Source: Hemiscyllium ocellatum
Taxonomy: Eukaryota
Direction of reading: 5' to 3'
Assembly (NCBI RefSeq): GCF_020745735.1
Contig: NC_083409.1
Span: forward strand, 9,971,534 to 10,035,533
Length of the DNA stretch: 64,000 nt
The position numbers were made by a program, and so were the translations under genes. Below, piece by piece: positions 10,006-64,000 of the stretch (position 1 is its first letter; each line of letters begins with the position of its first letter). The notes beneath the pieces are model-generated. The model worked only from the letters and a program-made list of their open reading frames with translations, did not search any database and was not told the DNA's origin.

Positions 10006-10191
10006 GTACAAATCTCTCTCCTTCCACCTTGAATCTTTAGCTGCTCTCCATTTCACTCCAATTCCACTGACTTGTGATTGAAGGGAAAATGCTGAAACCA
10101 GAGGAATGCTCAGTGTCTCCAACAATCTCTCATTTGACCGGCTCTTTCTGTGACAGTTCTGACTTCACTGTGTTTCTCTCTGACCCCTCAG

Positions 10192-10488
10192 GTATCAGTG
10201 GGGACATCACCATGACCCAGTCTCCCCCGGTGCTGTCAGTGGGACTGGGCCAGACCGCAACCATCACCTGTACGGCCAGTCAAAGCATTAGCAGCTCCCT
10301 TGCTTGGTACCAGCAGCGAGAAGGTCAGAAACCCTCTCTCCTGATCTATGCTGCAACAACTCGATTCACAGGAGTCTCCGAGCGATTCACCGGCAGTGGA
10401 TCAGGGACCAGTTTCACCCTGACAATCAGCAACGTTCAGAATGAGGATGTGGCTGACTATTACTGTCAGCAAGGTTACAGCTGGCCTT
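10192..10488 (+). CDS. IGKV: Ig kappa-type (cartilaginous fish type III) V segment exon
   Basis: Acceptor CCCCTCAG at 10191; (G)[52 protein letters not shown]...[35 protein letters not shown]; both Cys and the Trp are present, with no stops. Confidence 0.97.
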
Positions 10489-10516
10489 CACGGTGATACA
10501 GAGCTGAACAAAAACC
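10489..10516 (+). other. 12-bp-spacer recombination signal sequence 3' of V
   Basis: CACGGTG (10489-10495) + 12 nt + ACAAAAACC (10508-10516). Confidence 0.97.
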
Positions 10517-20105: not shown

Positions 20106-21235
20106 AGAAAAACAGTTTTTCCCATGTGTCTTCTGAACTATCTCACTGACCTGCATTCATTAGTCACCATGGCCACATCTTCCACCTCCACACACATCTG
20201 ACTTCCAGCTTCAACATGATGAGAGACGTTCCTTCATTATCTGAGAAACAGAAACATCAAACACAGGAGCAGCAGTAGGCCATTCGGCCCTTCAAGCCTG
20301 CTCCACCATTCAGTATGATCAAGGCTGATCATCCAACACAGTCCCCTGTTCCTACTTTCTCCCCACATTCTTTGATCCCTTTAATCCTAGGAACTATATC
20401 TAATTCCTTCTTAAATACACATTGCATCTAATTCCCTTTTACTGGAAAAATGGATGACAATTATTGGGTTGTTGTTTTTTGACCAGTATGGACACAATGG
20501 GCTGATGGGCCTTTTGGGTCCCGAAGACTCTATTGTTATATATTATGAATAACTGAGTACCAAGGACTGACCCTTGTGGCACCCTAAGTTGTAATTACCT
20601 GCCATTCAGAAAAAGACTCATTCTTTCTGTGCTGCCTGCCAACCAGTTCCCAATCCATGTCAGTACGTGACCCCAATCCTCTTGTTCATTTGGTCTAGAT
20701 CTGGGAGTCCCACCCTTACTCATTGTGGGAACAGATTCTGAACAGTCTGTCTCATCCTTCGAGGGCTCCCACTGCCCTGACACTGATTTCCCATCATGTC
20801 ATTGGTTCCGATCCACTTTTACCAAAGCACCGCACAGTTTAGTAAAATGAAAACTTTTACACTTGCTCCTTGGTTCTCCATTTCCATCCCTACTCTCAAT
20901 CTCACTGAGTTCTGATCACTGTCACTAAAATGATCCCCCATCGATAGCCCTTCGAGATGCCCACATTCATTCCATAACCAATGGTCCAAAATTGTCCCTT
21001 CTCTCTCTCTGCTGCTTCACCATCACCTTCTCAGGGGCAACTAAGGACGGTAATGAATGCTGGCCCTGCCAGTGACACTCAGATCCCAAGAAGCAATTTG
21101 AACAATGTCTGTTCATTTGTCGGGTTTGTTAGGTATTGACTACAAATGTTCAAAAAATTGCATTGCCAGTGAATATTGTGAGGGTTGAATTCCCTTCAAA
21201 TGGCAGGGATTAAAATTGTTTCTCTTTTCTTTCAG

Positions 21236-21564
21236 GCCGTGACAACTCTCAGCCCAAGCTGACCCTGCTGCCCCCCTCCCCGGAGCAGGTCAGTGCCAAG
21301 GGCACTGCCACCCTGGTGTGCCTTGCCAATCACTTCTATCCCGATGAGCTGGAGGTGCAGTGGAAGAAGGACGGTGCAGTCATTTCGGACGGGGTTCAGA
21401 CCAGCAACTACCTGCGAGCTTCGGACAGCACCTACAGTGTCAGCAGCATGCTGACACTCTCTGGGTCTGACTGGGAGTCCAACGCTCACTTCTCCTGTGC
21501 CCTCACCCACGTGACCCTCCCCTCTCCCCTCAGCAAGAGCATCAGTAAATCAGAATGTGTATAG
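21236..21564 (+). CDS. IGKC: Ig kappa-type light chain constant exon
   Basis: Acceptor TTTTCTTTCAG at 21235; (S)RDNSQPKLTLLPPSPEQVSAKGTATLVCLANHFYPDELEVQWKKDG...STYSVSSMLTLSGSDWESNAHFSCALTHVTLPSPLSKSISKSECV-TAG; in phase with J, intact, with the penultimate interchain Cys. Confidence 0.97.
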
Positions 21565-30079: not shown

Positions 30080-31623
30080 TGTTAAAGTACAGATTTGAGA
30101 TGGCCCAAGGAATCCCTTGTGGCCTCAGACCTGTAAGCCTCTCTTGGTTTGTCCCGGCTATTGTACTCTGAGTCTGGAATAGCCTGGAATAAAAACATCT
30201 TACGGACAGTTTAGTTTAATTTTAGTCTTACCCTTTATTTACCAATAACATCTCTGTTACAACAGAACACTGGGATTTATTAGCCAGACTAACTAAGATT
30301 CTAAAATCTTAGGAGAGTAGCGACCAGCTCTGCCTTGAAGAGCTCTAGCAGGTAACTCTCTCCTGTCACAAACAGGTTTCCTTTATACAAATTTTTACAA
30401 AAACATTGCATTTGATTAGATTTAAGCACTTGGCGAGACAAGTCCTTACTATAATAAGGAGGTACCAGTCGAAACTAAGTGGGAGAAGTCGTAAGGTAAT
30501 CTTGCATGTCAAGTATCGTTTTTTCCAAAATGGCTTCTTAGCGAGGAAGGCAAACGTTGACCATTTAAAAAATGGCTTGTTCATAGATTGTGTCAGAATC
30601 TCTTCTATATTGGGTGAGAATAATTTTTAAACTATGAGCAGACTCTTGCTTTTTATCTTAAGCAAACAATCATTCTGAACCTGAGGCTGAATTGTTACTG
30701 CAAAGTTGTATTTCAAATGATTCATTTGTCTTGAATTAGACATTTAATTTCTTTTCAGGGTTGTGGCTCAAATTCAAAGAGGACATAGATCTGACTCGTT
30801 AGAATTGATAGTGGGGCAGTCATGGTCTGTAAGAACAGCAAGTAAGTTAAAAGCTTCGTCAGCATTACCTTTTATAGAATTTGCATTTCATAATCAGCGA
30901 TTGTTACTCAAAATAATCATAAAGTCCCAAAATGCAATTAAGTTCAAAACAAGGGTTATGGAGATAACACCGGAACAGGATAATGATTGTACATAATCAG
31001 CCATGGCCATAATAAATGATGGTGCTAGCTTGAAGGGCCGAATGGCCGACTCCTGCACCTGTTTTCTATATTGAATCCACAACAAGTAAGCGTGCATTCC
31101 AACCAAATCACAGTTAATTTTCTATTGGTTTTGGCAATCTCAGCGTTAAAATGTTGTTCTCTCACTCTAGTGTCTTTTTGAACACCCAGGTTAGGGACTG
31201 TAACAGAATAATGTTTTTCCCTTTCTTTCTGCCGAGCCTGCAAGGGTAATACGAATCCAGTATAATTAATACGACCTGACCATTAATTACAAGGCTTTTG
31301 ACATGCTTGCAGGATGATACCAAGTCAGAGATCAGAATTAAACACTGTCATTAATTTCACAAGTAAACACCCATGAATGTTATCACTCTGTGTCCTGTTT
31401 ACACAGATTCATTGCTGTTAAGGCAATTGTTCTTAATTGCCTTGGAGCATCCTGTTACCACTCGGTGAGAACAGATGTTTTTACCTTCTGCACATCCTGG
31501 GTTCCCCCTTTTGCGGCCTGGCGCCTCCCTGGCTGTCCTGTTTATTTTCTACTGTGCAACAAATGTGTTCTATAATTCAACATTACATTTAGTCAAAATG
31601 TTTTAAGGCTATAAACTTTCTCA
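30080..31623 (-). repeat. 3' LTR of the ERV (about 0.9 kb longer internally than the 5' LTR)
   Basis: Starts TGAGAAAGTTTATAGCCTTAAAAC on the minus strand right after the PPT; both ends align with 35410-36169. Confidence 0.8.
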
Positions 31624-31634
31624 TTCCCTCCTTT
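31624..31634 (-). other. Polypurine tract
   Basis: AAAGGAGGGAA immediately before the TG of the 3' LTR. Confidence 0.75.
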
Positions 31635-31699
31635 AGTCATTTCATAACAACTACATAAGTTATACAAGTATAATTAGTTCATTCAGTCTATTTGTATTC

Positions 31700-34003
31700 T
31701 CAATAATTTGAGTGCTTCTTCTTGCGAGTCATTGTCCGGAGGATCAGAGCGGAAAGACAATGGATTTCAGCAGAGACATTCAGACGTGGAGCTACAGGGG
31801 TAGGCAAGGGTCGATTAACAAGATTCCTCTATGGCTTAGGCGAAAAGCAATGTACAGTCCATTCCATGCATAAGTGGATGACACTGAATATTCCTAGGAT
31901 GAGACCGGGGCCTATCAGTACGTTCCACACAGCGACCAAAGCCAGCAAGTAATACTCCATCCATATGGATCGGATGATGGTGCGGCAGGTGTTTTCCCTA
32001 CATCTTGACCAGTTTTGTTGATAACATCTATGTTGTCCAAAATGTCTTTAGAGAAATCATTGATGTAGATGCAACATTGTTGGCCAATAACAGAACAAGC
32101 ACCTCCTTCTTCAGCAAGGAGGAAACGTAGCATGAGCCAATTCTGAAGTGTTACCATCCAGGTCTCCTGTACCTCTTTGTTCACCAGTTTCAAAGCGTGG
32201 GTAGTTGAGTTGGCAAGTGTATCGATGTCATGCACACGGTCAGTTACCTGATCTCGGGCCTTCTCAACATCCCAGCCAGGAGTAAGGCCTCCCAGCAACT
32301 TGCATCACCAGGTTTCTTGATGGAAGAAGTTGTCTAAGTCCTGCTTGAATTTCCTCTACGTTTTGTTCCATTATGCTTCACATGTTGGTAGGCGTTCATT
32401 CATCACCTACCTCAGATACTTCATGGTGGAGGGTAAAAAGTGGTAAATTTTGTACTAGGGCACAACATTCGTACCAGTCATTGGGTAAATATGGGTGGCC
32501 TTTGTTTTCACATCGCCAATGAAGGCTAAAAGGAGTTCCAAAGGCACACTTCTGTGCGTGAATGATGAATCCACTCAAGGCGAGAGCTGATTCTTGTAAA
32601 TAGTGGGTGCTCTCAAACGTTTGGATGTCCAAGTGTATTAATGAATGAAGAGCAGGAGTATGAACAGTGTCTTTGATAACATTTTTACACAGTGCTGGCT
32701 TCACGTTCCCCATGTCTTGGGTACCGGATGTTCTTTCAACGCACCATTCTAACAGCAAAACAACGTCAAAGTTGAATCCTTGACGTTTGTTAGTGCATTT
32801 CACATAGAGATGCACCTTCTACCGAATGGGTTTTGCCATCATAAATGAGGGGTTGCATAAGTGGGTGAATCCTATTTCTACACTGTACATCAGAATGATG
32901 GAAGAGTGAGCAAATGACACATGGATCGGGGGTTTAGCTTGAGTAAAGAAACTATTGGTAACAGAAGGGAGATTGGGAGTGCATAGTATCTTTCCAGCTC
33001 GTCATCTTAATTACAGTAACTATTGAATACAGGAACTGTATACAGAGGAACCTCGATTATCCAAATGAGACGGGCCGGCACTATTTCATTCAGATAATTG
33101 ATTGATTATTCGGTTAATTGATTTCCTCTGGGTCTGTGAAGTCTGATCCCCGATCAGGACGCACGCAACATTTTGACAGGTTCTGCCTCTGTCCTGTACA
33201 GGGCAATGTTGGAGCGATAATCTAGGGATGGGGTGTTTGGGGTTCACCCCTGTTTAGAACTCCGGGGAGAGAGAGAGGGCAGGAGGTCAGTCATTTGGAG
33301 ATGGTGTCTGGACTGGTCAGGACTGTCCTCGGCAGCATTTCAGTGAGCCGAGCATGCTTTTAATCATTGTACCTGTAAACAGAAGACGTGATCAGGATTA
33401 AAATCGCTCTTTGATGTAATGTTTCTATCGGGACCTTAAGATCACCTTCGGATAATCCGATATTCGGATAATTGAGGAACCTGTGTAAAGGTATTTCTGT
33501 CAGTGGTGGTAGGTCGAATAGGTGAAGGTGCCATCGAGAAGGCATAGGTTGTCTGTCACGGGAGTAGATGCCTGAGGGTTTTGTGATTTCGGTACTATGT
33601 GCTCAATACTGCAATCCGTACGGTTTGTTTTGAGAGGGGAACAGACAGACATTTCAAAGTAACAGTTTTCGGTTGACAGAATTGTGCCATCTCATGATGT
33701 CTGGCATGGAAGTGTTGCGAGGATGATGACAAGGTCGAGAGTGATGTTTGGATACAAAATGTGAGCAGTTTAACTGAGTTTCAGCTGGGCAGCTGCATTC
33801 ATAACTTCCAATGGTATTAGTACAGGTTTCATTTGTACAGTTACATTGGAATTGTAGGCAGTCTGAGATATCACAGATATCACGGTTACATCTGGACGTA
33901 TGTACTTGTGTTGGGTTTTCATCGGATACCTGTATCAGTACTAACACAGGACTGTGAGGGAGATACACGCTTGCAATGTCCTTTGTCGACCCAAGTTGAA
34001 CAT
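31700..34003 (-). pseudogene. env: Retroviral env (gamma-type TM) with an N-terminal EGF-like module; stops, frameshifts and a MITE insertion
   Basis: LQNWLMLRFLLAEEGGACSVIGQQCC (immunosuppressive domain plus CX6CC, 32071-32148); SU C-terminal HWRCENKGHPYLPNDWYECCAL; fusion-peptide-like LLGGLTPGW; TM anchor VLIGPGLILGIFSVIHL; putative start MFNLGRQRTLQACISLTVL overlapping the IN end. Confidence 0.88.
33043..33485. mobile_element. Tigger/pogo-like non-autonomous DNA transposon inserted in env
   Basis: Terminal inverted repeats CAGAGGAACCTCGATTATCC / CACAGGTTCCTCAATTATCC, flanked by TA at 33041-33042 and 33486-33487. Confidence 0.75.
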
Positions 34004-34960
34004 TCTTCTACCTTTACTGCAGTTTCAGTTGTCAGAAAATCTTGATAAGGACCTTTCCAGCGAGGGCCCAATCTTTGATGATTAAAGTCCTTCAATCATA
34101 TGTAGTCACCAGGATTGATGTTTTTAAACTTTGGAGTTAGCTCCTCTTCCTTCCCTGGTACACAATAGGCTGCTTTGACTTGTTCTTAAAAATGTATTGC
34201 TTCAGGAAATGGCCTGAAGAAGGGCTTATGCCCGAAACGTTGATTGTTCTGTTCCTTTGATGCTGCCTGACCTGCTGCGCTTTTCCAGCAACACATTTTT
34301 AAGCTCTGATCTCCAGCCCTCACTTTCTCCTGCTTTGACCTGTTGATGATACGACTGCAATGCTTTGGTCAGCTTAATCTGGTACGTGTGCATTTCTTCT
34401 GCTGTGACATGCACATCAACCGGGTGTTGGAGAGTTAATGGTGCAGACCAGGGAGTTCTCATGGGCTTTCCATAAATCAGTTCAGTCACCGAGAATCCCG
34501 TCTTTTTCTATGTCATGGTTTTCTCATATAAAAGGGCATTTGGGAATACTTGCAGCCAATTACGACCAGTTTCTTCCACCAACTTGCTGAGCTGACCTTT
34601 TAAATTACAATTGGCTTTTTCTACAATTCCCACTGCTGGGAGATGTTTGGCACAATGGAATTTTCACTCATATTCAAACTCTTACATAGTGCCTTGTTTA
34701 GCTCCGCACAGAAATGGGAGCCATTATCAGAAGAAACCTTTACTGGGATTCCAAATCTGGGCATGATTTCCTTTAACAGAATTTTACAAGTAGTTGTTGC
34801 TGTGCAGTCAGTACAGGGATAAACTCCAATCCGTTTGTTAAATACATTGATTATCACTCAGCAATACTTATAACAATGGCATCTCGGTGACACCCTAAAC
34901 ACTCACTGGATAGTGTCAAAAGGTGCACTAGGCAAGGGAAGTGAATGGACTAATTCCCCT
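33919..34960 (-). pseudogene. Retroviral integrase remnant (interrupted by a Penelope tail at about 34200-34330)
   Basis: LPSAPFDTIQ, GVYPCTDCTATTTCKILLKEIMPRFGIPVKVSSDNGSHF, ELIYGKPM and PGDYI...GPRWKGPY...TTETAVKV...W...HCK (GPY/F module). Confidence 0.9.
34214..34241 (+). ncRNA. Penelope-associated minimal hammerhead ribozyme core
   Basis: CUGAAGA-A-GGGC-UUAU-GCCC-GAAAC-GUU: intact core, perfect stem II, NUH triplet; stem I imperfect. Confidence 0.6.
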
Positions 34961-35388
34961 TTTAATACAATTTTGTCTCCATGATTGAATTTTCATTTTT
35001 CCCGAGCTACCTTTTACCGTGCTGATATGGCTTCTTTCTGCTTACTACCCTTTCTTTTTTCCCAAATTTGTTGCTCAATTTTAATACGCGCCCATATTTA
35101 TCCAACTTAGTTTAAATCTTCACATAACTATTGATCTACAGGGGCTCCAATCCACAAAACACAGGGGCCTCTAATCCCACAAGATTCTGTTTTTAGTACC
35201 TAATTTAAACAATCTCATTTAGGGTTTCGTCCAGGTACCGTGAGAATGAAATGGGGGAAGCAGCACACAAAGAAGCAGACCGAGAGCAATCGAGGTATAA
35301 TCTTACCTTGTGGACCCATTGGTCTCGAGTCCGACCCTTCGGTGAAGCTCCTGTTTTCGAGTTTCATTCAAACTTATCCCTTGTTGGA

Positions 35389-35406
35389 ACCCTGCTCGCA
35401 GCGCCA
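35389..35406 (-). other. Primer binding site complementary to tRNA-Ser
   Basis: Minus strand TGGCGCTGCGAGCAGGGT, 3 nt after the LTR end; the forward sequence ACCCTGCTCGCAGCGCCA resembles vertebrate tRNA-Ser(CGA/TGA) 3' ends as I recall them. Confidence 0.7.
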
Positions 35407-35409
35407 AAT

Positions 35410-36169
35410 TGATAAACTGCAGGTTTGAGATAGCCCAGGGAATCCCTTGTGAACTCAACCAGTAAGCCTCTCTTGGCTCATCCCGGAGATAGTATTTTTG
35501 GTAGTCTGGAATTAAAATATTCCTGATGAAAGTCATTTGCCCGAAACATCGATTTTACTGCTCTTCGGATGCTGCCTGAACTGCTGTGCTTTTCCAGCAC
35601 CACTAATCCAGAGTCTGGAATTTAAAAAAAACTTCTTCCAGACAGTTTAGTTTAATTTTAATCACTCCCTTTATTTACTAATAGCATAACTGTTAGAACA
35701 TAACACTGATACCAATAAGCCAGGCTAACTGGATTCCAAAAACACAGGAGAGTAGGATATCACTCTTCCTTCAAGAACCCTGGCAGGTTACTCTGTTGTA
35801 CTATCACAAACAGGCGACCTTTATACAAAAGTTTACAAAGGCTTTCTTTGTACAAAAAGTTAAAAGCACTGCATGTTCTGAATGACATAGATAACAGTGA
35901 AGGACAATAATTCGGGAGAGACATTAATTGATACTGAGTTTCGTTTCGAGGTCAGAATCAAACACTTATTAACTTCACAAAGGACAAGCCATGAATGTTA
36001 TCACACGGTGGCCTTTTAAAAAGATTCAGTGATGTTCAGGAAAATGTTCTTAATTGCCTTACCCTCCTCCCTCTCTATTTTCAGGCGAACACCAAATGTG
36101 TCCTGTAATTCAACATTACATTTTAGTGGAAATGTTTAAGGACAAGTTTTAAGGCTATAGACTTCCTCA
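35410..36169 (-). repeat. 5' LTR of the ERV (contains a Penelope tail at about 35515-35610)
   Basis: Starts TGAGGAAGTCTATAGCCTTAAAAC and ends CA just before the PBS; homologous to 30080-31623. Confidence 0.8.
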
Positions 36170-39849: not shown

Positions 39850-42800
39850 TCTGTTTTTCAGCGGCAGCAGCAACTCGAAGGGTGAGAGCTTGTACCAGGG
39901 GCCTGCTGGGAGCAGTGAGTCACTGATTTGAGCTTTTAAATTTGAAGTCAGAGAGCAGAGATTTCTGGGAAAGGAGGGACTTCTTATTTTTATTTCCATC
40001 CAGCTATATAATTCAGTGGTTTCTCAAGCCGAGACCCTCCCTTTGTCGGGCTTCCCACCAAACCACTTCCTCTAACATTAATAACTAGGGAGATATCAAG
40101 TAGGCATCACTTCGTTTTTTTACTTTGTGATAAGGGGACTAGCAGTGATGGCAGTGCAGGGAGAGCAATGTTCCTCGTGCATGATGTTTGAGGTGAGGGA
40201 CGCCATTAGTGTCCCATCCAAGTACATCTGCACGTAGTGCACCCAACTCTCGCTCCGCCATGACAGTGTTCGGGAACTGGAGCGGGAGATGGATGAACTT
40301 CAGATCATTCAGGAGGGAGCTGCTGTAATAGGTAAGAGTTAGAGGGAAGTAGTTACTCGTAGGCACGAAGAAAGCTGGGTGACTGTTCAAAGGGGGAAAA
40401 ACAGTCAGTGGAGCGATCCGCTGTGGTTGTTCACCTGAAAAACATGTATACTGTTTTGGATACTGTTGAGGGGGACGACTTACCAGGGATATGCAGTGAG
40501 GCCCAGGTCTCTGGCACAGAGCCTGTCCCTGTTGCACATGAGGGAAAGGAGGAGAGCGTTAGTCATTGGGGATTCGATAGTTGGAGGCTCAGATAGAAGA
40601 TTTGTAGGGAACGAACGAGACTTGCGGTTGGTGTGTGGCCTCCCAGGTGCCAGGGTCCGTGAGGTCTCGGATCGTATCTTTGGGCTCCTGAAGGGAGAAG
40701 GTGACCAGCCTCAGGTCGTTGTCCGTGTAGGTACCAACGACATAGGTAGAAAGAGGGATAGGGATATAAGGCAGGATTTCAGGGAGCTAGGGTGGAAGCT
40801 GAGAGCGAGAACAAACAAAGTTGTTACCTCTGGGTTTGTTGCCCGGGCCACGTGATAGCGAGACAAGGAATAGGGAGAGATATCAGCTGTACACGTGTCT
40901 GCAAGGATGGTGCAGGAGGGAGGGTTTCAGGGACTTGGATAATTGGGACTCATTCTGGGGAAGGTGGGACTTGTACAAACAGGACGGTCTTCACTTAAAC
41001 CAGAGGGGTACTAATATCCTGGGTGGGAAATTTTGCTGGTGCTATTCGGGTGGGTTGAAACTAGCTCAGCAGGGGATGGGAACCGGAGGTGTAGTTGCAG
41101 TGCACAGGAAGATGAGAGTAGGAAGGACAGGGACAGGATTTCGGGGGTCGCAAGAATGTGCTGGCAGACAGCGAAGTGATTTGAAGTGTGTCTATTTCAA
41201 CGCCAGAAGTATCCGAAATAAGGTAGGTGAGCTTGCAGCATGGATAGGTACCTGGAACTTTGATGTTGTGGCCATTTTGGAGACATGGATAGAACAGGGT
41301 GAGGAATGGATGTTGCAGGTTCCAGGGTTTAGATCTTTCACTAAGAACAGGCAAGGCGGTAAAAGAGGGGGAAACGTGGCCTTGTTAGTCAAGTATAATA
41401 TAACGGTGGCTGAGAGAAATTTTGATGAGTACTCGTCTACTGAGGTCGTGTGGGCTGAGGTTAGAAACAGGAGAGGAGAGGTCACACTGCTTGGAGATTT
41501 TTATAGGCCTCTGCAGAGTTCCATGGAAGTGGAAGAGAGGACTAGCAAAATTATTCTGGGTAGGAGTGAAAGGAACAGGGTGGTCATTGTGGGGAACTTT
41601 AACTTCCCCAACGTTGACTGGAAATGCTATAATTCTAGTACGTCGGATAGATCAGTTTTTGTCTGATGTGTACAGGAGGCTTTCCTGACACAGTATGTTG
41701 AAGGGCCGACAAGAGGGGAGGCCAAATTGGATCTGGTGCTTGGTAATGAAACAGGTCAGGTGTTTGATTTAGTGGTAGGTGTGCACTTTGGAGAGAGTGA
41801 CCATAATTCAGTTATGTTTAGTTTAGCGATGGAAAGGGATAGGTACATGCCACAGGTCAAGAATTAATGACGGGGCAAGGGCAATTATATTGCGATTAGG
41901 CAGGAATTAGGATGCATAGAATGGGGTAGCAAAATGCAGGGGATGCAGACAATGGAAACGTGGAGCTGGTTTAAGGAACAGATATTGCATGTCCTTGATA
42001 GGTATGTCCCTGTCAGGCAGGGAGGAAGGGATAAAGTAAGGTAAGCGTGGTTTACGACAGAAATTGCATCTCTTGTTACGAAGAAGAAGGAGGCTTATGT
42101 GTTGATGAGGCAAGATGGTTCAGATGAGGCGATGGAGAGTTACAGATCAGCAAGGAATGATTCAACGAGAGAGTTAAGAAGAGCAAAGAGAGGACACGAG
42201 CAGTCTTTAGCAAATTGAATAAAGGAGAACCCTAAAGGTTTCTATAGGTATGTGAGAAATCAAAGGATGATTAGAGTGGGAATAGGGCCAGTCAAAGACA
42301 GAAGGGGGAAGTTGTGTGGATCCTGTGGAGATCGGAGAGGTACTAAATGAACATCTCTCATCAATTTTCACTCAGGAAAAGGAGAATATTGGAGAGGAGA
42401 AGAACGAGGTATGAGATACAGTAGCGCCAGAACATACGAGCGACCCCGTTCACAAACAAATTGGTTTACGAACAGTATTGTACATAAAGTTTTGCTTCTA
42501 CATACGCACAAAATTCAAGGTAAGAATGATGGTACGAGCAATTCGTCTTTGGAGTATGCACAGTTCGTCTTTGGCGCGTGCGCAGTTCATCTTTGGAGCG
42601 TGCACTGTGAACATGGGAAAAATTGATTCGCGAACCGGGTGGCGGAACAGATTAAGTTCGTAATTCGACGCGCTACTCTGTTAGACTTGAAAGGATCGAG
42701 GTTAGTTACGCACAGGTGTTATCAATTCTAGAAGAAGTGAAAATAGACAAGACCCCTAGGCCGGATGGGATTTATCCGAAGATTATCTTGGAAGCTAGGG

Positions 42801-44294
42801 AAGAGATAGCAGAGCTTTTAGCTTTGATATGTGAGTCATCATTGTCTCCAGGTTTGGTACCAGAGGACTGGAGGACTGCAAATGTTGTGCCCTTGTTCAA
42901 GAAGGGCAGTAGAGATGACCCAGGTAATTATAGACCAGTGAGCCTTACTTCTGTTGTAGGAAAGGTTAAGGAAAGGATTATAAGAGATAAGGTTTATAAT
43001 CATCTAGCAAGCAGCACTTTGATTTCAGATCGTCAACGTGGTTTCGTCAAGGGCAGGTTGTGTCTCACAAACCACAGTGAGGTTTTTGAGAAGGTGACCA
43101 AGCATGGAGATGAAGATAGGGCAGTTGACACTGTATACATCGACTTCAGTAAAGCCTTTGATAAAGTTCCACACGGTAGGTTGTTGGAGAAAATGCAGAG
43201 GATGGGATTTAGGGTGATTTAGCAGTTTGGATAAGAAACTAGCTTTCTGAAAGAAGGCAGCTAGTGGTTGATGGAAAATATTCAGCCTGGAGTCCGGTTA
43301 CTAGTGGTGTGCCACAAGGATCTGATTTAGGACCACTGCTGTTTGTCAGTTTTATAAATGACTTAGACGCAGACTTAGGTGGATAGATTAGTAAATTTGC
43401 CGATGACAGTAAATTTGGCGGAGTAGTGGACAGTGTGGAAGAATGTTACAAATTGCAGGGGGTCTTGAATAAACTGCAAAATTGGGCTGAGAGGTGGCAA
43501 CTGGAGTTCAATGCAGCTAAATGTGAGGCGATTCACTTTGGGAAGAATAACAGGAAGGCAAAGTACTGGGTCAATGGAAAGATTCTTGGTACTGTGGATC
43601 TGCATAGGCATTTTGGAGTCCATGTACATTGATCCTTGAAAGTTGCCATCCAGGTGGATAGTGCTGTTAAGAAGGGATACGATGTTTTCAGTTTCATTCG
43701 TAGAGGGATTGAGTTTCAGAGACGCAATATCATGCTTCAAATATACAAAATGCTGGTGTGGCCACACTTGGAGACCAGAACTGTTGACAATATTCCATAT
43801 TTTGCGAAGGATGTGGAAGCATTGGAAAAGGTGCAGAGGAGATTTACCAGGATGTTGCCTGGTCTGGAGCGAAGGTCTTATGTGGAAAGGTTGAGAGACT
43901 TGAACCTATTTTCATTGGCAAGAAGAAGGCTAAGAGGGGATTTCATCGAGACATACAAGATGATCAGAGGATGAGATAGGGTAAACAGTGAGAGTCTTTT
44001 TCCTAGGATGATGGCATCAGCGTGTACGAGGGGGCATAACTACAAATTGAAGGGTCATAGATTTAAGACAGATGTCAGAGGCAGGTTCTTTACGCAGAGA
44101 GTGGTAAGGGCGTGGAATGCCCTACCTGCTAATGTAGTCAACTCAACCACATGTGGGAGGTTTAAACAATTCTTAGATAAGCACATGGATGATTTTGGGA
44201 TTGTGTAGGGGGACGAGCTGAGAATAGCTCACAGGTCGGCACAACGTCGAGGGCTGAAGGGCCTGTTCTGCGCTGTATCGTTCTATGTTCTATG
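39850..44294 (+). mobile_element. Near full-length CR1 LINE (zinc-finger/esterase ORF1 from 40148; EN-RT ORF2), inactivated
   Basis: CSSC...YICT*C, VIGDSIV...PGARV...VGTND (SGNH esterase); [47 protein letters not shown] and FADD; (TTCTATG) 3' tail; many stops and frameshifts. Confidence 0.92.
42419..42680. mobile_element. Small DNA-transposon-like (MITE) insertion inside the CR1
   Basis: Interrupts ORF2; ends CAGTAGCGC... / ...GCGCTACTCTG flanked by TA; internal 3x ~21-bp repeat (GCAGTTCGTCTTTGG); CpG-rich. Confidence 0.55.
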
Positions 44295-63109: not shown

Positions 63110-63484
63110 GTGAGTCGTTGACAGTGTTTGTTGTTGATCAACGTTGACTGTCTCCTTGTTCATACCATTTTAGATCAGGTAACTTGTTTTTCTGATACCA
63201 GCAATCTGCAATGGATATTCTCTGCAACAAGTCCATCAATTTTCAATTTCCATTTTATCAATTTTTCACCTTCTGAAGATTTTTTTTGATAGAATGTACC
63301 TTGCTGGTTTCGTACAGTAGATTATTTGACTCTTCATTCTGTACAGAGCGAGCTCTGGAGCTGCTCATTAAATACTTTCCTGTTTTGATAGCCCAACATA
63401 ATGGTTTTAAATGCGCTCAGCAAATTTATTGAATGCAACCCAATACTCGAATATTATGTACCTCTGTCTGTCTCTCTTTTACAG

Positions 63485-64000
63485 CAAACTTGATGACCAT
63501 TGTGATTCTGTCACGAGGAAACTGTGGTCTTTCAAAGTGTATTTCTGTCTACATGATGGCCATGGCAACAACAGACCTTCTTGTTATTATCTTCTATGTA
63601 AAAGTGCATTATATCTTCAATTATCACTTTCCATTTTCAATCCTGTCCCAAACATCTTGGTGCACAGGCATTATATATTCCAGTGGTGTCAGTATAGATT
63701 TATCTGTCTGGTTCAATGTCTCCTTCGCATTTGACAGATTTGTTGTGATCTGCTGCCAGAAGTTTAAAACAAAGTATTGCACGAAGAGAACTGCAATTAT
63801 CATTGTAACAACCTTCTCTTTCCTGATGGTGTTGAAGAATATTCCACTTCTATTTGCTTATGAACCTCAATACATTATCAACAAGGTGCAGTGGGGCTGT
63901 CGAGCAAGTGTGTCTTTCTTTTCATCTTCTGCAGGTACAGGATACCTCTGGTTCTACAGCGCCTGGCTTGCCTGGCTTCCTTTCACTTTGATTGCCATGT
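63485..64000 (+). CDS. Class A GPCR (GPR139/GPR142-like), exon 2, open to the window edge
   Basis: Acceptor TTTTACAG at 63484; (A)NLMTIVILSRGNCGLSKCISVYMMAMATTDLLV...SVWFNVSFAFDRFVVICCQKFKTKYCTKRTA...WGC...WLPFTLIAM; TM1-TM5 and a DRF motif, no stop. Missed by the ORF track because it runs off the end. Confidence 0.88.

Follow-up and report, generated by a model that had tools for sequence, protein, structure and literature searches.

EGF-type modules, likely of host origin, within the envelope frame of an endogenous retrovirus family of Hemiscyllium ocellatum

The provirus in the window

The window, a stretch of 64,000 nucleotides of Hemiscyllium ocellatum DNA, carries on its minus strand an endogenous retrovirus (ERV) that reads LTR, primer-binding-site (PBS)-like stretch, leader, a large gag–pol deletion, integrase (IN), env, polypurine tract (PPT) and LTR (Table 1). 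The family to which it belongs has the features of class I (gamma/epsilon-like) ERVs, namely LTRs, PBS, PPT, a gag zinc knuckle, a YVDD-type reverse transcriptase (RT) and an MLV-type IN C-terminus. The zinc knuckle, RT and IN zinc domain are present in other copies, and related copies hold ~2.3 kb of extra sequence between 34959 and 34940. The insertion is old, as the 5′ and 3′ LTRs are 76% identical over 236 nt and 80% over 116 nt. A short repeat (repeat family D7) has entered the integrase at ~34200–34330, and env bears a one-base deletion in the signal region (near codon 16, common to the window, L039 and L040), a 445-nt insertion in the surface subunit (SU) and further frameshifts. The transmembrane subunit (TM) matches Pfam TLV_coat, and its PDB matches are class I fusion subunits. 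The order of parts described in an earlier note on this DNA is confirmed: IN C-terminus (MLVIN_C), signal-like stretch, EGF piece, SU and TM (TLV_coat). Its placing of the env start after the integrase stop was wrong: env begins inside the 3′ end of IN, at a common start column (33994) that is TTG in the window and Met in 11 long and 22 short rows of the alignments described below.

Table 1. Parts of the provirus, with positions in the window
Feature	Position	Strand	Evidence and remarks
5′ LTR	35410..36169	-	Inserted short repeat near 35520–35610; matches LTRs of other copies
PBS-like stretch, starts TGG	35389..35406	-	Directly after LTR end
Leader and gag start	34940..35388	-	Most of gag, PR, RT and RNase H deleted in window copy
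Integrase core and C-terminal domain, broken	33919..34939	-	Pfam rve E 2e-9, MLVIN_C E 2e-13
env start column and signal-peptide-like hydrophobic stretch	33926..33994	-	Column tallies, hydropathy; overlaps IN end; cleavage site placed by eye
Stub of N-terminal Cys domain	33834..33917	-	4 of 8 Cys columns; aligns to long-form codons 27–54
In-frame deletion junction defining short subfamily	33831..33833	-	Long-form codons 55–235 absent
C-terminal half (C3–C6) of calcium-binding EGF module	33756..33830	-	Pfam EGF_CA; continuous with full module in long copies
Remainder of SU	32364..33755	-	CXXC columns 32921–32910, 32806–32795; several frameshifts; Cys column tallies and indel list
445-nt foreign insertion in SU	33036..33480	.	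Limited to window's lineage; absent from dispersed copies
Basic furin-type SU/TM cleavage columns	32343..32363	-	K/R share 0.85–1.0 at four alternate columns; broken in window copy
TM subunit	31683..32342	-	ISD-like stretch, CX6CC 32097–32071, membrane anchor, stop column 31685
PPT and 3′ LTR	30080..31634	-	PPT 31634–31624; LTR 31623 to ~30080, holds insertions

Two further observations concern the ends of this provirus. A short leader ORF with an ATG start follows the PBS (35318–35290, minus strand); a donor-like AAG|GTAAGA comes after it, and the reading continues as a run of hydrophobic residues. Either a leader for spliced env or a small upstream ORF would account for it. In PDB, the family TM (window 32340–32050) is matched best by filovirus GP2 chains (E 1e-9), with syncytins behind them; a hydrophilic stretch after the furin site suggests an internal fusion peptide.

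Copies of the family and the env frame

A DNA search of the 3.98-Gb genome gave 148 candidates, 40 of which were scored. Twenty long stretches and the window represent 13 independent insertions, ~80–88% identical and star-like in their relationships. The numerous copies on the contig of the window probably descend from a single insertion by segmental duplication, because L039, L040 and the window have flanks and breaks in common. Copies were also picked by their TM region, so that selection on the EGF was avoided; 40 of the best 150 TM-region matches were taken (20 high-ranked and 20 lower-ranked, by the author's choice). They comprise 18 window-like copies, 15 longer ones and 7 without the env start. 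A search with the EGF pair of the longer copies added 13 loci, bringing the long loci to 28. The alignments exclude three long and two short loci with large insertions and count L034 as short, its 'long' signal being a low-complexity artefact; their rows are not all independent, with L064/L072 and L023/L045 as close pairs.

All env copies examined are broken. Which reading frame did they once share? Read from 33994 across the 13 insertions, a single interior column has a stop tied as the commonest codon, against 39 and 51 such columns in the other two frames, and there TGA, CGA and CAA occur four times each, a CpG pattern. No interior column of the env frame has a stop as its commonest codon in 29 short rows (640 codons), nor in 25 long rows (~820 codons), where the other frames have 60 and 70; taking long and short rows together, the other frames range from 38 to 70. 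Would a consensus place the EGF out of frame with env, as the earlier note had thought conceivable? It does not: signal, EGF piece, SU and TM share one ~640-codon frame across the short rows. One natural copy, with its stops read as X, matches both EGF_CA and TLV_coat in a single frame, and the parts of a gamma-type Env all lie in one frame: signal, CXXC, furin site, ISD-like stretch, CX6CC and anchor.

RT was found within the fetched stretch at 3 of 38 short and 10 of 28 long loci; as the remaining 35 short and 18 long loci show none there, many copies of the family were not autonomous and help in trans was probably common. A PR–RT deletion with a single shared junction upstream of RNase H is seen in L027, L040, L042, L047, L051, L070 and other short copies, and long copies hold other pol deletions in common. 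Co-option was weighed for one long copy, which has a 347-codon open frame, and rejected: its private pN/pS is 0.74, Cys are lost, and runs of ~300 codons occur in other copies.

The EGF piece of the window

The earlier note read a calcium-binding EGF-like (cbEGF) domain from the minus strand at 33872–33765. The translation is as it was given there, and the pattern C-x-[DN]-x4-[FY]-x-C-x-C has one match in the six frames of the window (33824–33789), against 0.02 expected. Pfam EGF_CA scores 30.5 bits on 33747–33884 (cut-off 27, E 4e-7) and 26.1 bits, under the cut-off, on the whole 117-codon frame. The best PDB match of the piece is fibrillin. The frameshift proposed between signal and EGF is real, the two being in frame in 7 of 21 aligned rows.

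The outer cysteines of that reading did not survive comparison with other copies. The supposed lead Cys at 33860 is Trp (5), Arg (5), Gln (2) or a stop (1) in 13 independent insertions, and the lead D/N-x-D/N-E/Q-C is lacking from the short form, its Cys slot holding one of these in 13 of 13 other insertions. The DISD ahead of 33860 is part of a different, N-terminal domain and not of the cbEGF; the stub of this domain resembles a cbEGF lead because the column at window 33872, Asn (in a sequon) in long rows, is Asp in short rows. The Cys taken as the last one (33767) is Tyr in 10 of 13 insertions, the C6 column of the family being 33758, which is Phe in the window. Both Cys are late changes, and late substitutions have inflated the Pfam score of the window; another short copy scores 17.7 bits.

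What is left of the proposal of a captured EGF module? The EGF sequence lies in the env frame, is family-wide and is homologous to cellular EGF-repeat proteins, and to that extent the claim stands; the window itself has the C3–C6 half only. The short form does not have six Cys from one module, as C1 and C2 fall in a deleted block. It keeps the Asn of C3-x-N, and its aromatic column is Tyr in the window's lineage and His in 19 of 28 main short rows. Nor is the segment a later insertion: it is carried by all 33 of the 40 TM-picked copies that retain the env start, the other 7 being truncated.

The long form: two EGF modules and a stalk

The long form runs in the order signal, 8-Cys domain, Thr-rich stalk (30% Thr), EGF and cbEGF, and then has the same SU and TM as the short form. 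Its first EGF is Pfam EGF_3 (PF12947), at 40.7 bits against a curated cut-off of 28.5 (E 3e-10). EGF_3 is matched in 7 of 8 long copies and EGF_CA in 4 of 8 (E ≤ 0.01). The column tallies of the second module contain the lead, six Cys, the Asn and the aromatic residue of a cbEGF, with a calcium signature of D/N (22/24), D/N (22/24), E (19/24), C (19/23), N (21/23) and Y (19/22) in long rows. The full calcium-binding signature belongs to the long subfamily only. Eight of 13 sequon columns lie in codons 27–235.

The N-terminal Cys domain gave no significant match in Pfam, PDB, Atlas or an EGF profile. It was tried as a degenerate third EGF and rejected, with an hhalign probability of 1.5% and with Pfam, PDB and Atlas blank. 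No third family carrying the domain was found among 23 candidates, 23 of which match at 64–100%. Two structure predictions are of low confidence (pLDDT 30 and 44), and a fold search found no match.

The short form: a probable 181-codon deletion

The short form equals the long form minus codons 55–235 (181 codons), in frame. The provirus of the window belongs to this short subfamily, its Cys-domain stub running directly into the second half of the cbEGF. The lost block is empty in 31 of 31 short rows, the spacing from C53 to C238 is 15 nt in 28 of 31, and natural copies have a 3-nt microhomology at the junction. In the long form this block holds the cbEGF lead, C1 and C2 together with the second half of the Cys domain.

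Which form came first? The block completes both the cbEGF (lead, C1, C2) and the Cys domain. This makes deletion more credible than insertion, on a tree that has no outgroup. A short ancestor, from which the long form gained 181 codons by later insertion, would suit the shape of that tree (two sister stars, no outgroup), but such an insertion would have had to complete two cut domains at once, bringing to each precisely the portion that it lacked; we regard it as highly improbable.

With deletion as the preferred direction, what became of the module? At the junction, a Cys of the stub lies four residues before C3, where C2 of an EGF would sit, and eight Cys are left in the region; a hybrid EGF-like knot formed by re-pairing is plausible. 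Contigs from two other species span the EGF pair of the long form, and in one run a loose end resembles the short junction, so the long and short forms probably predate the splits from those two species. Among the RNA matches listed, none holds the long-form EGF pair.

Selection on env

The subfamilies form two stars, ~84% identical within and 78% between, and dN/dS within either one is uninformative as both are star-like. Fixed differences between them, counted over 550 of 639 shared codon columns, amount to 73.5 synonymous per 349 sites and 67.5 non-synonymous per 1301, a pN/pS of 0.25 against 0.61–0.63 for private within-family decay, which is neutral (p 3e-8). Purifying selection thus acted on env as the two progenitors diverged. 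These figures refer to codons that both forms possess; EGF1, the stalk and the first half of the cbEGF lie outside them, the long clade being a star. In the retained half of the cbEGF, 6 synonymous differences stand against 3 non-synonymous ones (pN/pS 0.12, p 0.02), and the TM ectodomain has a pN/pS of 0.11.

Could the EGF be a passenger in a defective transducing element that spread on a helper Env, as v-sis in simian sarcoma virus (SSV) or nectin3 in CrocERV31? Many copies are without PR–RT, several at one shared junction, and capture inside env usually destroys env according to the accessible part of PMC13297096. The furin, CXXC, CX6CC and anchor columns are nonetheless all present and the frame is open in both forms; the constraint on the TM ectodomain largely refutes a passenger origin, which we consider very unlikely.

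Did selection continue after the deletion? Once separated from the window's lineage, the main short clade fixed 7 synonymous changes and 5 non-synonymous ones (pN/pS 0.19), against decay in the window's lineage (Fisher p 0.03). The test has 12 changes to go on, and it takes that lineage to be an early branch and not a recombinant. These small numbers suggest that the shortened Env still mattered.

The earlier note had also thought of receptor or ligand binding. Are the EGF modules the essential receptor-binding domain of Env? In gamma-type Envs the binding domain is N-terminal in SU, which is where the modules sit, and the second half of the cbEGF is constrained and kept in all 33 TM-picked copies having the region. 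However, the short subfamily has lost 1.5 of 2 EGFs, including EGF1 and the calcium-binding lead, and yet is widespread with its env selected, which weakens the case for an essential role. Moreover, the EGF matches are of structural or adhesion type, not growth-factor ligands. An essential receptor-binding role is therefore unlikely in our view, and the arm was most likely largely dispensable.

Origin of the EGF modules

A short-form profile run against 1.84 billion proteins gave 11 hits, all aligned through EGF repeats, and no viral relative with the N-terminus of the family was among them (7 judged by sequence, the rest by the EGF alignment). The EGF-pair profile gave 7 hits, 7 of 7 being multi-EGF proteins, and its best match is a cellular EGF pair, at 43% over 69 residues. 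A protein search with the short-form alignment returned nothing among 3470 candidates, and a search with the whole short Env returned one distant rodent Env and nothing else.

Might a Cys-rich viral stretch have come to resemble EGF by convergence, so that nothing was captured? Short Cys-rich motifs match easily, the score of the window depends on late substitutions, and the donor search described below found none. On the other side stand two tandem modules with the correct linker and with scores above the Pfam curated cut-offs, and the extent of the match to the cellular pair, which leave convergence as a very remote prospect. Judged by these alignments, homology of the modules to cellular EGF-repeat proteins is clear, and their capture from a host cell-surface protein is likely.

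Which protein was the donor? The leads disagree, pointing to SUSD1 (Atlas score 0.80, a lead only), to uromodulin EGF I–II (E 0.014) and to adhesion-GPCR-like proteins. These cellular EGF + cbEGF pairs, and those of fibrillin, are like the long form in Cys spacing, linker and calcium signature, but none is close enough to be named as donor, and the short form keeps half a module. In the genome no donor gene stood out, host EGF exons scoring at most 13.8 bits, and none was found in 30 loci drawn from the best 150 of 1508 host EGF_3 candidates. Six weak genome matches to the EGF pair were dismissed as chance matches and not EGF exons.

Two host EGF clusters were seen on the way. Contig C54 has more than 100 near-identical single-EGF exons within ~400 kb at 62.87–63.27 Mb (L109–L111, L115, L116, L119–L129), which read as a very large tandem EGF array or an expanded gene. 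In contig C14, at 30.05–30.06 Mb (L108, L112, L117), single open frames of 723 and 878 aa carry many intronless EGF modules.

A model of capture and partial loss

How could these observations fit together? We find it fairly probable that host-captured EGF modules came to lie in frame with a complete gamma-type Env and formed a glycosylated, dispensable arm for attachment or shielding in front of the SU core. An ancestor of the family would have taken part of a spliced host cell-surface mRNA into the 5′ end of env by template switching; we infer a spliced template because the two EGFs are contiguous, without an intron. The glycosylated arm may have aided in attachment or in shielding. Fusion would have remained a task of the SU core (codons 261–570 of the long form) and TM, as would, probably, the binding of the receptor. 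The long form would have come first, and the short form would have arisen from it by one deletion at the 3-nt microhomology. This deletion may have survived since the stub Cys took a C2-like place and eight Cys let a hybrid knot re-pair, probably without calcium binding. Both forms would then have spread by reinfection, with RT-less copies helped in trans.

More tentatively, and with rather less confidence than doubt, we suggest that an infectious virus used a host-mimicking arm (mucin-like stalk, EGF and cbEGF) for attachment, and that its descendant built a hybrid EGF knot by an in-register deletion. If true, engineered EGF–Env display would have a natural counterpart, and the shuffling of domains within a viral fusion protein would be on record.

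Relation to known captures

Host-gene capture by retroviruses is known. The nearest cases are CrocERV29 (KIT-ligand) and CrocERV31 (nectin3), described by Chong et al. 2014 (PMC4299795). As far as the available part of that paper goes, they too are old ERVs in which intronless extracellular sequence of host origin, under purifying selection, lies where pol meets env. KIT-ligand, however, forms an ORF of its own between these two genes and nectin3 has taken the place of env, whereas here the modules lie within a complete Env frame. In amphibian ERVs with a gamma-type Env, a host OGFr domain is fused in frame into a core retroviral ORF, again in an anamniote; in the portion of the preprint at hand (bioRxiv 10.1101/2021.11.23.469661) OGFr sits in Pol, and the present modules sit in Env. 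In the env-sis of simian sarcoma virus a host extracellular-protein sequence is likewise inserted in env, and, in the accessible part of PMC13297096, the insertion destroyed Env, whereas in the present family the SU and TM hallmarks and selection persist. Engineered EGF–Env MLV offers a further parallel: replicating virus tolerated EGF at the N-terminus of a gamma-type SU, and the EGF was deleted under selection in some cells, as recounted in the part of PMC544597 available. That construct is artificial and carries the growth factor EGF, whereas the present modules are natural and of adhesion or calcium-binding type; it shows that EGF display is workable.

Has a natural Env with EGF modules been described before? 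None was found in the full-text literature searched; subscription journals, Repbase/Dfam annotations and preprint supplements lie outside that body of text and may hold the family. The anamniote Env survey cited above (bioRxiv 10.1101/2021.11.23.469661) took in cartilaginous-fish Envs, in the part of it available, and 'EGF' has no occurrence in its main text, its consensus-bearing supplements lying outside that scope. The term is likewise absent from PMC6001957 and PMC8672886 and from the available part of a 2026 chondrichthyan Env preprint (bioRxiv 10.64898/2026.05.06.723177), and occurs in PMC11905727 only in a reference title. What appears to be new, within the text searched, is the presence of EGF modules inside a complete, selected Env. 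In the captures described so far, the host gene forms an ORF of its own, lies in Pol, takes the place of Env or ruins it. The present family has instead kept host-type modules in a complete, selected envelope, of which two versions are recorded. This suggests that host cell-surface domains can furnish the variable front end of a gamma-type Env, a point of interest for how new attachment domains originate. A simple screen follows, that is, to look for host domains in intact fish and shark Env ORFs, beyond surveys by TM motif.

Other content of the window

Ig V-set and C1-set exons lie at 10071–10493 and 21214–21561 on the plus strand. The Ig C exon has 347 candidate copies, and among the 40 listed most lie at 9–24 Mb on the window's contig. 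Cluster-type Ig loci fit cartilaginous fish, and the provirus of the window appears to have multiplied along with such a locus. An open frame at 63433–63999 (plus strand) matches rhodopsin-family GPCRs and is cut by the end of the window, and fragments of a LINE-type endonuclease and RT lie at 40803–43219 (plus strand).
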